Part shown: positions 2,835 through 38,160 of the stretch, one piece after another
Layout: every line of letters starts with the position of its first letter
How positions within the stretch are numbered: position 1 is the first letter of the stretch
The notes under the pieces: model-generated
Told to the model about the DNA's origin: nothing
What the model saw: only the letters and a program-made list of their open reading frames with translations
The model's database searches: none
Made by a program: the position numbers and the translations under genes
Source of the DNA: Methanocellales archaeon
GTDB lineage: Archaea > Halobacteriota > JAWCLZ01
Assembly (NCBI GenBank): GCA_038850285.1
Contig: JAWCMA010000002.1
Span: 67,783-110,537, forward strand
Direction: 5' to 3'
DNA length: 42,755 nt

Positions 2835-3568
2835 TTATGAAGAAGGCCATTAAAAAAGTTATGATTGTTGACGATGAAAGAGACGTGGTGAATTTATTCG
2901 AAGAAATGCTCTCAGATAATTATCAAGTTATAAAGGCATATAGCGGTGAAGAATGCCTTGAAAAACTCAAGCTGGAGAAGCCAGATTTAATCTTGCTTGA
3001 TATATTAATGCCTGAGATGAATGGTTGGCAAGTGCTGGAGAAGATCAAGCAATACCCAGAGCTTAAGGATATACCAGTTATCATGCTAACCGCAGTTAAA
3101 CCAGATTTCAGCATACTTCAAAAAGGCATCGAAAACTACATAGTCAAACCAGTGGCGCGAGGCGAACTCATAAACACAGTGAACGAATTCTTCAAAGCTA
3201 GAGAAGCAATGGCGCAGTTTGAAGCCAGAGCTCTAGCCAGAGGCGTGGCAAAGGATTTGGTAGTGGAATACAAGGAAAAAGCTAGGCAGCTCGATGTCAG
3301 CGAGAAGCTATCAACGCTGCTCAAGCAAATCTTTACCCAGAAAGCTATGGGGCACGAGGAGAGTACTCAAAATTTAATGAAGAGCTTGGAGAGAGCGATT
3401 GAATTGCAAAGAGAAGAAGTACATCGCCTTCAAATTGAAATTGAAAAATACTTCCAAGATCCAAGGGAGCTAAGGGCATTCTTCGATATTGCAGAGTGGA
3501 GTGCAAGGAAAAAGAAATGCGAAGGAGCGGGTTTAAAGTATATGAAGCGGAGGCAGTGGTTCAGCTAG
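2831..3568 (+). CDS. Response regulator receiver protein with C-terminal helical (HalX-like) extension
   Basis: [30 protein letters not shown] and YIVKP receiver motifs; ATGA overlap with the original kinase stop. Confidence 0.9.
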
Positions 3569-6118: not shown

Positions 6119-6139
6119 TCTCGCTGAATATATGTAAGC

Positions 6140-6188
6140 AAAGGCGATGAGGCCCGCCTTTAACTGCCATTAGGCTGATGGCTTCTAT
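6140..6188 (+). ncRNA. Fluoride riboswitch (crcB motif)
   Basis: AAAGGCGATGAGGCCCGCCTTTAACTGCCATTAGGCTGATGGCTTCTA: P1 aaaggcg/cgccttt, P2 gcc/ggc, pseudoknot gaggcc(6149-6154)/ggcttc(6180-6185), conserved GGCGAUG and CUGAUG...CUA elements. Confidence 0.93.
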
Positions 6189-6194
6189 TATACA

Positions 6195-20215: not shown

Positions 20216-21135
20216 TCGAATAGAATTATAACAGTTTTATGCTTCGCTGCGCTTGTACTTCTATTGCTTGACTGCCTGCAGCAGCCTATTCCTACTCAAA
20301 AACAACTCTAGTACCTAGTACCAAAATAGAATATCCTGGTTCTTCGACCAAAGTTAGTTTACCTATTCTAAATCAATCGCTATTGCCTCTACCATATCAT
20401 CCCTATAACTTAAATCCAATACCTGGAGCAGAGAATGTTTCACTAGATGCTAGCATATCTTTAACTTTCTCTAGACCGCCACCTTTGTTGAAGTTAGAAA
20501 TAGAGCCTGAAGTGAATATAAGCTATGTTGAGCAAGAACTTATCTTTTATAGCGGTAAATACACATTTTATTTAGCTGAGCCATTACACCCTGGAACAAA
20601 ATATAGTGTAAAGGTAACCGCAGGCCAAGAAGAGCCACCTAACCCTAGTTTCTTCCCCCTTAACCCTAGTTTCTTCCCCCTTAACCCTAGTTTCTTCCCC
20701 CCACCTTAACCGTTTCTTGGAATTTTACTTCGATTAAAACTGAAATCGAGGTAACGCCTAAGCAAGGTGATTATTTTATTCTCCAAGGGAATATCACTAG
20801 AATTCTCTTAGTTGATTCTCATTTGAAATATAAGTTCTTAAGCTATAAAGAAATATGTCCGCCAAGCTATGGAATGGTGGGGAGCTAAAAATGGAGATCT
20901 AGGCATTGTAGTGAAGGGAATTATCAAAAATGAGTATGATGAAAATAAATGGCTATGCTTGCACGCGTCAGCTTATAATTCCGCGAATGAGCGAGTGGGA
21001 GGCATTCTAGACCAAGGTCATATCTGCGGTGCTATTCGAATTTATGTTAAAGCTGGACAAATAGAGCAATTCCAGATGCATTTAAAATTTAGAGAGGACA
21101 TTGAGCGCATTTATTCTTTGCGGATGCATCAGTGA
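20216..21135 (+). pseudogene. Fragmented exported/lipoprotein gene with Ig-like (Big_5-like) domain
   Basis: Signal-like RIITVLCFAALVLLLLDC, then PIPGAENVSLDASISLTFSRP...LHPGTKYSVKV; continuation TVSWNFT after a frameshift at 20697-20702; further fragment GIVVKGIIKNEYD in another frame. Confidence 0.68.
20641..20702 (+). repeat. 21-nt direct tandem repeat x3 (aaccctagtttcttccccctt)
   Basis: Copies at 20641, 20662 and 20683; the third ends in a C6 run; no spacers. Confidence 0.95.
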
Positions 21136-35248: not shown

Positions 35249-36289
35249 ATGGCAAAGATAAAAGTAGCAGTTTTAGGAGCCACTGGAAACGTAGGCCAGC
35301 GCATAATTCAACTCTTAACAGATCATCCTTGGTTTGAGCTTGTTTCAATAACAGCTTCGGATCGAAGCGTGGGCAAGAAATATAAAGAAGCAGCGAACTG
35401 GAGGCTTAATGCAGAAATTCCTGAGAATGCAAGAGATCTAGTGGTAGCTCCAACAGATCCCAAGGGCGTGGATGAAAGCGCTAAATTGATATTCTCAGCG
35501 CTGCCTGCGGATATTGCGAGAGCTGTTGAGCCTGAGTTTGCCAAAGCTGGCTTCTTAGTTTCAAGCAATGCAAGTGCATTTAGAATGGAGAAAGATGTGC
35601 CACTTATTATTCCCGAGGTAAATCCAGATCACCTTGGTTTGCTGGGAGTGCAAAGGGAGAATCGAAAATGGAGCGGAGCGCTTTTAACAGATCCAAATTG
35701 CACTGTCATTCAGCTGGCGATCTCTCTCAAGCCCCTCATGAATTTTGGAATTAAGCGGGTGCACGCTGCATCTATGCAGGCGGTAAGTGGAGCTGGCTAT
35801 GATGGCGTGGCTTCAATGGCGATTTTGGATAATTTAATTCCCTATATTGCAAAGGAAGAGGAAAAAGTAGAGACCGAGCCGCTTAAAATACTTGGTACTT
35901 TCAATGGAAGAGAAGTGGAATTCGCGCAGTTTAGTATTACAGCCAGTTGCCATCGCGTGCCAGTTTTAGATGGTCATACTATAGCTGTTTGGGTGGAGCT
36001 GGAGGAAGAACCGGAGGTAGAGGAGGTAATTAAAGCTTTTCGAAGTTTTAAGTCAGATTTAAATCTCCCTAGCTCTCCTCCGGAATTGATTCAGGTTAGA
36101 ATGGAGCCAGATCGCCCTCAGCCGCGGCTAGATAGAGATGCTGGAAGGGGAATGACAGTTACAGTTGGCAGAGTTCGAAAGAGCGATAGAGGTATTAAGT
36201 ATATTTGCCTGGGACATAATACTATTAGAGGAGCTGCTGGCGCTGCATTGCTCAATGGTGAATTGCTGGTTAAGGAAAAAAAGCTTTAA
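35249..36289 (+). CDS. asd: Aspartate-semialdehyde dehydrogenase
   Basis: [52 protein letters not shown]. Confidence 0.97.
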
Positions 36290-36372
36290 AAAGACCTTCG
36301 CGCTCGCCCTACAAAATGAAGGGGGAATTAAGGGGGATGAATGGGGAGTGCAAGGCGAGTCTCGCGGTCTCC
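36288..36372 (-). ncRNA. Putative small RNA with bulge-helix-bulge motif and C-rich loop (candidate circular RNA precursor)
   Basis: Minus strand GGAGAC-CGCG-AGA-CUCGCCUUGCA-[35-nt loop]-UGUAGGGCGAG-CGCG-AAG-GUCUUUUU; G-U wobbles pair only on this strand; BRE/TATA upstream; U5 end. Confidence 0.68.
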
Positions 36373-36394
36373 AAATTAAATATACCTTTGAGAC

Positions 36395-36409
36395 CTCTTA
36401 ATTTTTTCG
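36395..36409 (-). promoter_or_regulatory. Candidate BRE/TATA promoter for the BHB small RNA
   Basis: Minus strand CGAAAAAATTAAGAG; TATA-like element about 25-30 nt upstream of G36372. Confidence 0.55.
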
Positions 36410-36443
36410 ATAATTGTCGAATTTTAAATCTATATAGTCGATA

Positions 36444-37190
36444 TCATATCAATGGTCTCAGCTCGCTGACTTCAATTAAATGCGAAATTGCCTTACTCTG
36501 GATCTCAATATCGCTCTCGATGCTCGCTGCAACCAAATTATGACCACCGATTAAGGCAATTCCCACGCGATCTCTTCCAACTGGAACATCGAGTAAAGGT
36601 GTATTAGGGTCGCCAACAGCCAGAACCCCTTTGAAGTCCGCAGCCACGAGATCTTCAAGTATACCCTCAACATCTTCCCGCGCAGACATAGGCACTTCTC
36701 TTAAATTCGCAAGAATCTTACCGGAACCAGTGGTGATCACTTGAAGCACCGAGGTAGAGTTTTTAGAGGTAAATACCTCAAGGGGGTCGAGCGTGGTACT
36801 TACATACATAAGCAAATCTGTGAATCTAACTGGCTCTCTATCCCGCACCTGCACAATGCCGCCGCATTTTAACTTCGAAGGAATACCAGCCTTCAGCAGC
36901 ACTCCGTCTATAGTTATACTGCAGATGGTGAGAATACCAACCTTGCCTTTTTCAATTACCAGGTCACCTGAGGTTTCCCCTTCATCAACTATTTTAATCA
37001 GCGGACTCACAGCTATACCGCTATATATAACTTGAGAAAAAATCTCAAGCACTCTATCTAGATCTTCCTTTTTCACCAGCGAGAGATTCACAATGACCTT
37101 TCCCCTCTTAATTACTGGATCAAAGGTAACGCCATAGATTAGCTCTTCAATTCTAGAGATCGTAAATGTTATATTGGTGGAGATGCCCAT
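36444..37190 (-). CDS. NrpR regulatory domain (DUF128) protein lacking the wHTH; NrpRII-like
   Basis: SRIEELIYGVTFDP...GKVIVNLS, TICSITIDGVLLKAGIP, RFTDLLMYVSTTLDPLEVF, GKILANLREVP; start set at MGISTN. Confidence 0.85.
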   Translation of the reverse strand: MGISTNITFTISRIEELIYGVTFDPVIKRGKVIVNLSLVKKEDLDRVLEIFSQVIYSGIAVSPLIKIVDEGETSGDLVIEKGKVGILTICSITIDGVLLKAGIPSKLKCGGIVQVRDREPVRFTDLLMYVSTTLDPLEVFTSKNSTSVLQVITTGSGKILANLREVPMSAREDVEGILEDLVAADFKGVLAVGDPNTPLLDVPVGRDRVGIALIGGHNLVAASIESDIEIQSKAISHLIEVSELRPLI

Positions 37191-37254
37191 TTCTTTATCG
37201 AAAAACCATATTACTGGTCTGAGTATATATAAATTGGAGGTAGGGTGATGGATC

Positions 37255-38160
37255 ATGAATAAAATGGTGAATATTATAAAGGAAATTTTCACAACAGGGG
37301 GTTATAATGTTAGAGAAGCAATGGAGGACTTTGATTTAGTAGCTGAGAAGGGAAAGAACACTGTTTTGATCAAATACCTCGAGAAACTAGATAAACAATC
37401 AATAAAAGAATTCGCTCAAGTCACGAGGAGAAGAGGCTTGCCTCTCTTAATTTCAACCGCAAGTGCTGATGCTGAAATCAAAGATTTTGCCCTCACACTT
37501 GAAATTTCCCTATGGGATCGCTCTGAATTTGAACTGCAGATTGGAAGAGCTATACTCGCAGATATAGAGGGAGAAACACCTGAAATTGCCATCGCGCCAA
37601 CTCAAGCTGCAACTCTACATATAATTACCCAGCCAGTTAAAATCACAAAGCGAGAAGCAATGGCCGCGGGGAAAAAAGATATGGGAATGGCAGATGAAGC
37701 TGTGCTTAGATTCGTGCCATTCTATAAATTTGATTATTCATTTGATATTTCCAAGCGCTATAATCAGGAATTCAAAGGCAAAGGCTCAGGCAGCTTCAAT
37801 GCATTGAATGGAAGAATTGAGTTCACACCGCTAACTGAACTTGAAGAGACTATCAATTTACCGCAAAATGAATATCTAATCAATGAACCAGCGATTTCAA
37901 AAGAAGAAGCAGCAGGGAAGATTCGAGAAGAAATATGCAAGCATCATGCTCAAGATATAAAAAGCAAAGTAGCTCAAGGCGAGTCAGTGATAATTGAACA
38001 TAGAGTTATAAAACCCCAGCCCAGAGATATAGAACTCAGCATGAGCATGGTTTACATACCATTCTGGGAGGTTAAAAGCAAGAGAGGTAGCTTCGAGATG
38101 AATGCATTCAATGGCAAAGTAAGCGAGGTGCCAATCGACAACGATGCTGAATTCGTTTAA
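37255..38160 (+). CDS. Hypothetical protein with N-terminal restriction-endonuclease-like fold
   Basis: GYNVRE...DFDLVAEKG...VLIKY...IKEF...LLIST...ISLWDRSE resembles Mrr-like domains; duplicated VPFY/IPFW subdomains. Confidence 0.6.
   Translation: MNKMVNIIKEIFTTGGYNVREAMEDFDLVAEKGKNTVLIKYLEKLDKQSIKEFAQVTRRRGLPLLISTASADAEIKDFALTLEISLWDRSEFELQIGRAILADIEGETPEIAIAPTQAATLHIITQPVKITKREAMAAGKKDMGMADEAVLRFVPFYKFDYSFDISKRYNQEFKGKGSGSFNALNGRIEFTPLTELEETINLPQNEYLINEPAISKEEAAGKIREEICKHHAQDIKSKVAQGESVIIEHRVIKPQPRDIELSMSMVYIPFWEVKSKRGSFEMNAFNGKVSEVPIDNDAEFV

Follow-up and report, generated by a model that had tools for sequence, protein, structure and literature searches.

A predicted small RNA gene with a bulge-helix-bulge hairpin and a C-rich loop, restricted to a class-level archaeal lineage

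A minus-strand hairpin element lies between the convergent genes asd (plus strand) and an nrpR-like open reading frame (ORF; minus strand) in 42,755 nt of DNA from a Methanocellales archaeon (GenBank assembly GCA_038850285.1, contig JAWCMA010000002.1, positions 67,783–110,537; this whole stretch is hereafter called the window). We predict, with high confidence, that this element is a conserved, single-copy, lineage-restricted and independently transcribed small RNA (sRNA) gene. A preliminary description of the window had proposed a stand-alone minus-strand gene at this place, and the promoter block, conservation, fold and single-copy status all agree with that proposal, the transcript being predicted. 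For the overall explanation we lean towards an sRNA whose working part would be a C-rich loop presented on a stem, together with a bulge-helix-bulge (BHB) processing step confined to one genus. Transcription would start at or near G36372, about 26 nt past a conserved BRE/TATA element (BRE, transcription factor B recognition element) that is preceded by a candidate palindromic operator, and would stop in the U5 tract (36292–36288). The resulting RNA of about 85 nt would fold into a GC-rich hairpin presenting a G-free, C-rich loop of 35 nt, whose most likely role is to bind a protein or an RNA rich in G-runs. The coordinates of all features are collected in Table 1.

The genome of the window (G000) is a 1.28-Mb assembly of 93% completeness; public records of the lineage are 'Methanocellales archaeon' metagenome-assembled genomes (MAGs), and the label of the linked run is hot springs metagenome. 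The one metatranscriptome from the same study gave no contig over 36100–36600, a result that speaks neither for nor against transcription. The comparison set comprised five sequences, covering the four species of the GTDB class (G000, G001 and G002 from one genus, with near-identical hairpin sequences, and G003 from the sister genus) and one metagenome contig (L041). A covariance model of the element found one match in each of the four class genomes (4/4, two genera), and homologues were found only in these genomes and, from a single metagenome scan, on the one contig. Searching 151 genomes of the phylum with the covariance model gave only three further matches (E 0.0035–0.076), the best of which (in G060) is a short hairpin of plain form that follows an ORF, and blastn in 40 relatives gave no match beyond the family. 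Within its own genome the element has one full match, the other seven matches being 14–24 nt long with E of at least 0.29. A miniature inverted-repeat transposable element (MITE) or other repeat was rejected as its identity on the basis of this single full match and the single covariance-model match per genome. The asd and nrpR-like flanks are the same in all five homologues.

Conservation within the locus is distributed unevenly. The promoter block is 0.79–0.87 identical to G000 in the four homologues and is followed by a 24-nt spacer of 0.38–0.65 identity, past which conservation resumes at 36372, where the hairpin begins. Identity is 0.93–0.95 (0.67 in the other genus) over the 5′ stem together with the loop's 5′ half, compared with 0.33–0.67 for the 3′ half of the loop, 0.62–0.95 for the 3′ stem and 0.24–0.91 for the trailer. 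The promoter, the inner stem and the 5′ half of the loop, which holds two C-runs, are kept in 5/5 homologues, and the 3′ half of the loop is variable. Since the family as a whole keeps the promoter, the inner stem (11 bp) and the loop's first two C-runs, and not the BHB, the loop on its stem is the probable working part. A reading that denies the element a separate function, and makes it a hairpin formed by chance, part of a mobile element or a short coding region, would have in its favour the lack of covariation and two plus-strand ORFs that overlap the element (36165–36401 and 36316–36543; 78 and 75 aa). These ORFs are interrupted among close relatives by frame-shifting gaps in the spacer and the loop and are therefore ruled out as coding regions; with five of five homologues conserved above the surrounding spacers, a single copy between syntenic flanks and a fold that beats shuffles in all five sequences, we regard absence of function as very improbable.

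The minus-strand sequence reads as the preliminary description had laid it out, with an outer helix (H1), a central helix, two bulges and an inner helix (H3) between 36372 and 36288. The GC content of the ~85-nt RNA is 0.553 as against 0.412 for the window, and its apical loop consists of three C-run units of about 11 nt each (Tandem Repeats Finder: period 10–11, 3.1 copies). Folding of the minus strand is more stable than that of shuffled sequences (z −3.13, 0/200 shuffles as good), as opposed to the plus strand (z −1.40, 16/200 as good), and the z-score lies between −3.1 and −3.7 across all five homologues. The hairpin holds four G-U pairs, the number previously described. Over the five sequences, 96.4% of the cells of H3 are paired, and four of its pairs vary on one side only (U-A/U-G, G-U/A-U), so that pairing survives on the minus strand only; 83% of the cells of H1 are paired, again with one-sided changes only. 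The minus-strand orientation is assigned because of the G-U pairs, these wobble-type one-sided changes and the fold z-scores.

The element matches no RNA of a known type among those searched for. ARAGORN found no tRNA in the window and Rfam gave no family at gathering score for the element, its only matches to the locus being two chance-level ones on the plus strand (E 2.9 and 8.8), which bears out the earlier statement that neither tRNA nor rRNA is present. With the element also single copy, the two identities that had been named as potentially fatal to the proposal, a known Rfam family and a MITE, were both looked for and not found. C/D box sRNAs carry the C box RUGAUGA and the D box CUGA, and neither TGATGA nor CTGA occurs in the 85 nt.

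In the alignment, the promoter block consists of a near-perfect 16-bp palindrome, TTCGA-N6-TCGAA, and CGAAAAAATTAA; the palindrome is almost invariant in 5/5 sequences. A conserved BRE/TATA block, a freely varying spacer and a conserved RNA start about 26 nt further on form the pattern of an archaeal promoter, from which we infer a promoter role for the BRE/TATA-like element that the preliminary description had pointed out. TTCGA-N6-TCGAA occurs at three sites in the genome, the sRNA promoter being one of them. A second site (C2:139296–139311) stands just before the TATA-like box of a gene for an HTH(ArsR)-MEDS-V4R regulator, and that promoter has a neighbouring perfect palindrome, TTCGTAAATTTACGAA. 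The palindrome at the two promoters may be a shared operator and, as it precedes both, the HTH-MEDS-V4R regulator is a candidate controller of the sRNA, which we offer as a weak lead.

The same region can be read as the 3′ end of its neighbours, with the hairpin and U5 tract terminating or stabilising the nrpR-like mRNA, or with the transcript of the element acting only in cis, as antisense to the 3′ untranslated region (UTR) of asd, and with the BHB incidental. No T5 run is present between the stop codon of the nrpR-like ORF (36444) and the hairpin, asd is without a T-run before the T6 at 36404–36409, and the A6/T6 conserved in the 'BRE' would do equally well as a plus-strand asd terminator. 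Also fitting are the convergent neighbours, the contact of the U5 tract with the asd stop codon and the constancy of this arrangement in 5/5 homologues. We nevertheless consider this improbable: in G003 the loop and the upstream palindrome are conserved above the coding ends (0.85 for the promoter versus 0.69 for the end of the nrpR-like ORF), a variable stretch dividing the conserved block from the start of the RNA is what one expects of a promoter, and archaeal termination relies on an oligo-T tract, which is required, rather than on a hairpin, which is not.

The case for processing of the sRNA begins with the geometry of the hairpin. In the hBHBh′ motif, as defined in excerpts of PMC4090602, each strand has one 3-nt bulge, exactly 4 bp lie between the two, and helices flank them. 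The G000 element (6 bp / 4 bp / 11 bp, bulges AGA and AAG) matches this definition exactly, as do those of G001 and G002, in which the 3′ bulge is AGG and AAA, respectively. Both bulges lie 3′ of their central-helix strands, as in a pre-tRNA whose intron sits at 37/38; tRNA-Gly(CCC) of G000, which carries an intron, has this handedness too (TTCC CAG ... GGAA ACA), and excerpts of PMC4090602 describe pairing of the intron with anticodon nucleotides one and two. Cutting behind the second nucleotide of each bulge would release 36360..36297, a piece of 64 nt, so that the 3-4-3 geometry, the handedness and the arithmetic of the predicted circle were all correctly described. Both strands of G000 were scanned for two-bulge hairpins using a simple pair-weighted score, with control geometries as comparison, and the candidate is the top canonical 3-4-3 match in the genome (score 50), followed by a locus on contig C19 (48) and then by a score of 41.

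The C19 runner-up supplies a second BHB in the same lineage. This locus (11 bp / ATAC-GTAT / 8 bp, bulges AGA and AGA, excised part of 74 nt and C-rich) sits in a conserved leader of about 250 nt upstream of a 51-aa C2H2-like zinc-finger ORF, with a TTTATATA promoter upstream and the Shine-Dalgarno (SD) sequence of the ORF 13 nt downstream of the motif. The canonical BHB is predicted unprompted by RNAalifold and is kept in 4/4 genomes, with two outer-helix pairs changed on both sides and variable bulge letters; there is no Rfam match at this locus. Its identification from sequence comparison as a non-tRNA BHB in a 5′ leader, a new case of the kind seen in the HVO_1309 5′ UTR, is well supported. 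The loop of the candidate and the excised part of the second locus share a C-rich motif (21/23 nt), whose alignment score of 25 compares with 14.0 ± 1.9 for plain shuffles (0/500 reach it) and 16.1 ± 2.3 for shuffles that preserve C-runs (0/1000 reach it). This test is fair only because the BHB scan had picked the pair beforehand; in a genome-wide blastn-short search, many chance matches do as well as the ungapped core of the motif (14 nt, E 43). Antisense homology between the two BHB loci was not significant (64/500 shuffles), and pairing in cis of the second-locus leader with its own intron was no better than in shuffles. A strongly conserved stretch rich in G-runs (C19:9614–9663, minus strand) lies upstream of the second BHB in the same leader; among non-coding partners for the loop of the candidate, it is the richest in G.

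Of the two enzymes needed, RtcB is present in G000. EndA was found in 3/3 relatives as one ORF of 357–409 aa with two catalytic-type domains. Two-domain-in-one-ORF EndA is not among the types that cut relaxed motifs in the excerpts of PMC5829648. ARAGORN calls introns in 12 of the 28 tRNAs of G000. The 3′ end of 16S rRNA is, like EndA, not found in the G000 assembly, and both are probably missing through an assembly gap.

Set against processing is a body of evidence that weighs on the cleavage step and, in part, on the structure itself. EndA (PF01974) was not found in the 93%-complete G000 assembly. None of the 21 hairpin pairs shows a compensatory change over the five sequences, which leaves wobble changes and fold energy to carry the structure; the compensatory changes for which the preliminary description had proposed a test were thus absent, and the 3-4-3 geometry is present in three of the five sequences, all from one genus. 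The central helix has 75% of its cells paired (5/20 unpaired) and shows no covariation. In L041 (CGCU AGG) it contains a C.U mismatch and fits a 3-3-3 register only, and G003 has a symmetric internal loop with neither a central helix nor a BHB. The third 3′-bulge nucleotide (G) can pair with the first central-helix C to give this 3-3-3 register also in G000, where the canonical form has a predicted energy of −24.1 kcal/mol, the 3-3-3 register −25.0 kcal/mol and the minimum free energy (MFE) structure −26.1 kcal/mol; the canonical form thus lies 2.0 kcal/mol above the MFE, and the pair that defines the 3-3-3 register has a probability of 0.965 versus 0.034 for the canonical closing pair. Control two-bulge geometries in the genome scan reached top scores of 49, 48, 46 and lower, so one strong match per geometry is not extraordinary, and the 3-3-3 match that scored 50 is the candidate hairpin itself in the other register. 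At loose thresholds the canonical geometry is as common as the controls (3092 vs 3023–3215; 76 vs 58–78), and weak BHBs that enclose two C-runs show no enrichment (22 canonical vs 23–35 in six other geometries with a 4-bp central helix; 3-5-3 gave 2). The third C-run of the loop is without conservation among the homologues; of the C-rich loop with three motifs that had been described, the three C-run units are present and the first two are kept in 5/5, but the third is not conserved.

Cleavage by EndA and closure by RtcB of 36360–36297 into a 64-nt circle, within the genus, is in our judgement finely balanced, leaning slightly to the negative. In favour are the exactness of the motif and its rank in the genome, the well-supported second BHB and the shared motif; against are the loss of the geometry in L041 and G003, the absence of covariation and the competing register. 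The circular product claimed in the preliminary description therefore stands in part: the top BHB of the genome, the second BHB, RtcB and the EndA of relatives speak for it, and the lack of covariation, the two sequences without the geometry and the favoured 3-3-3 register speak against it. If it occurs, circularisation would be a step of maturation or stabilisation that is specific to the lineage, superimposed on an sRNA that in the sister genus does its work without such a step.

A stronger version would make this a dedicated circular-RNA gene, in which only the 64-nt circle is functional and the two 'exons', of 12 and 9 nt, are waste. Such a gene would account for an hBHBh′ that is exact, is handed like a tRNA intron of this genome and ranks first among canonical matches genome-wide, and for the minus strand 3′ of the hairpin, which holds nothing able to serve as an exon. 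It is in keeping with the second, covarying BHB of the lineage and the related C-rich motif in the piece excised there, and with the variation within the genus, which falls in the 3′ bulge (AAG/AGG/AAA) and leaves both CGCG strands invariant. With the AAA bulge of G002 the canonical BHB is the predicted MFE structure, and RtcB, with EndA in relatives, provides the machinery. An essential circle would, however, be expected to keep its BHB, and G003 keeps the promoter, the stem and the C-rich loop without one; the C.U in the central helix of L041, the two catalytic-type domains in one ORF of the relatives' EndA, the register favoured in G000 and the missing covariation all count against it as well. 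We therefore consider a dedicated circular-RNA gene rather unlikely and retain the explanation of a loop-on-stem sRNA with a genus-confined BHB step.

The loop was compared with the whole genome by RNAduplex, and the G-rich leader of the second locus was the best non-coding match. Cognate loop–leader pairs from three species reached −38.6 to −44.8 versus about −21 for mononucleotide shuffles (0/300 as good). Against shuffles that preserve G-runs, the 35-nt loop gave −34.5 versus −33.6 ± 4.1 (206/500 as good) and the cofold gain was −15.0 versus −13.9 ± 4.1 (35/100 as good), and loop–leader pairing in G003 gave no signal (58/300 shuffles as good). Specific pairing of the loop with the second-locus leader, gone under the run-preserving control and without signal in G003, was rejected, a further result unfavourable to the reading proposed here; as the pairing is lost under that control, only C-runs meeting G-runs remains. 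Among 849 long ORFs, GAGGT was counted upstream of 62 and GGGGG upstream of 17, the usual SD words being GAGGT/AGGTG.

As a broader and rather speculative suggestion, which we hold with low confidence, this lineage may have co-opted the tRNA-splicing machinery for a small family of circular C-rich regulatory RNAs sharing a UUCAnCCCCCUUAA-type motif, one derived from the leader of the zinc-finger ORF and one from the candidate as an intron-only gene with its own regulated promoter. Such circles would act on a common G-run-rich RNA, for example the second-locus leader, or on a common protein.

Table 1. Coordinates of the hairpin element, its promoter region, the flanking genes and the second BHB locus. 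Positions are those of the window unless a contig is named.
Feature	Position	Strand	Remark
Predicted primary transcript, ~85 nt	36372–36288	−	first outer-helix G to U5 tract
Outer helix H1, 5′ strand GGAGAC	36367–36372	−	pairs with 36290–36295
Central 4-bp helix, 5′ strand CGCG	36363–36366	−	pairs with 36299–36302
5′ bulge AGA	36360–36362	−	predicted EndA cut between 36361 and 36360
Inner 11-bp helix H3, 5′ strand	36349–36359	−	pairs with 36303–36313
Apical loop, 35 nt	36314–36348	−	no G, 49% C
Inner helix H3, 3′ strand	36303–36313	−	pairs with 36349–36359
Central helix, 3′ strand CGCG	36299–36302	−	pairs with 36363–36366
3′ bulge AAG	36296–36298	−	predicted cut between 36297 and 36296
Outer helix H1, 3′ strand GUCUUU	36290–36295	−	overlaps U5 tract
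U5 tract	36288–36292	−	abuts asd stop codon 36287–36289 on the other strand
BRE/TATA-like element	36395–36409	−	centre ~26 nt upstream of 36372; within conserved block
Near-perfect 16-bp palindrome TTCGA-N6-TCGAA	36406–36421	.	abuts BRE; candidate operator for a dimeric regulator
Further ATCGAC	36437–36442	.	near TTCGA-N6-TCGAA palindrome
asd	35249–36289	+	flanking gene of hairpin; stop codon 36287–36289
nrpR-like ORF, NrpR regulatory domains only	36444–37292	−	flanking gene of hairpin
Canonical BHB, second locus	G000 contig C19:9492–9594	−	runner-up of genome scan

Two further features of the window were recorded. A perfect 21-nt tandem repeat (20640–20701, plus strand; 3.0 copies, 100% identity) appears inside an open frame and codes for a repeated heptapeptide; its units contain CCCCCTTAA, a word that is also present in the sRNA loop. 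A fluoride riboswitch (RF01734) lies at 6134–6194 on the plus strand, with 52 bits against a gathering score of 34.

Even if it is not cleaved, the element would be a new conserved and regulated small RNA, as predicted here, in a class-level lineage known only from metagenomes, and with the second locus the BHBs of 5′ leaders gain a new, well-supported member. Were the hairpin cleaved, archaea could encode circular small RNAs directly through a free-standing BHB-hairpin gene, and the candidate and its BHB-less version in the sister genus would form a natural pair for asking what circularisation contributes.

With respect to known systems, the closest parallel for the loop lies in bacteria, where the C-rich loops of RsaE/RoxS-type sRNAs pair with G-rich ribosome-binding sites. 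The candidate is likewise a hairpin sRNA with several unpaired C-runs, but it belongs to another domain of life and shares no homology with them, and the usual SD words in its genome are GAGGT/AGGTG rather than G5. Parallels for the BHB are archaeal. The tRNA-Trp intron is a C/D box sRNA found as a circle after BHB excision (excerpts of PMC12558985 and PMC4090602) and thus provides a precedent for an excised BHB piece that is a functional and circular small RNA; its host is a tRNA gene and its product a C/D box guide, in contrast to the candidate, which has neither a tRNA nor the words TGATGA and CTGA. In the permuted signal recognition particle (SRP) RNA of Thermoproteus, the flanks of a non-tRNA transcript form the BHB and the enclosed RNA is circularised (excerpts of PMC4731332). 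This RNA and the circular pre-16S/23S rRNA intermediates, to the extent that the excerpts describe them, resemble the candidate in having a BHB formed by flanks and a circle after EndA cleavage, and differ in being universal RNAs of known function, the candidate being lineage-specific with 64 nt enclosed. EndA substrates described in the excerpted sources are tRNA introns, rRNA processing stems, the cbf5 mRNA intron, the HVO_1309 5′ UTR and the permuted SRP RNA; no stand-alone BHB small RNA gene was found in the literature searched, whose supplementary tables may list further BHB circles. In the euryarchaeon Haloferax volcanii, EndA excises the BHB intron of the HVO_1309 5′ UTR, from which a 46-nt circle was recovered (Schwarz et al. 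2020, PMC7714728, in excerpt). Like it, the candidate carries a BHB outside tRNA and rRNA, and the second locus shares the HVO_1309 layout. The candidate differs in not lying in a UTR and in being known from sequence alone, whereas cleavage and the circle have been demonstrated for HVO_1309. As nothing follows the candidate on its strand, the excised part would be its only product; were this true, archaea would have in it a first example of a stand-alone circular-RNA gene with nothing but a BHB-excised piece as its product.

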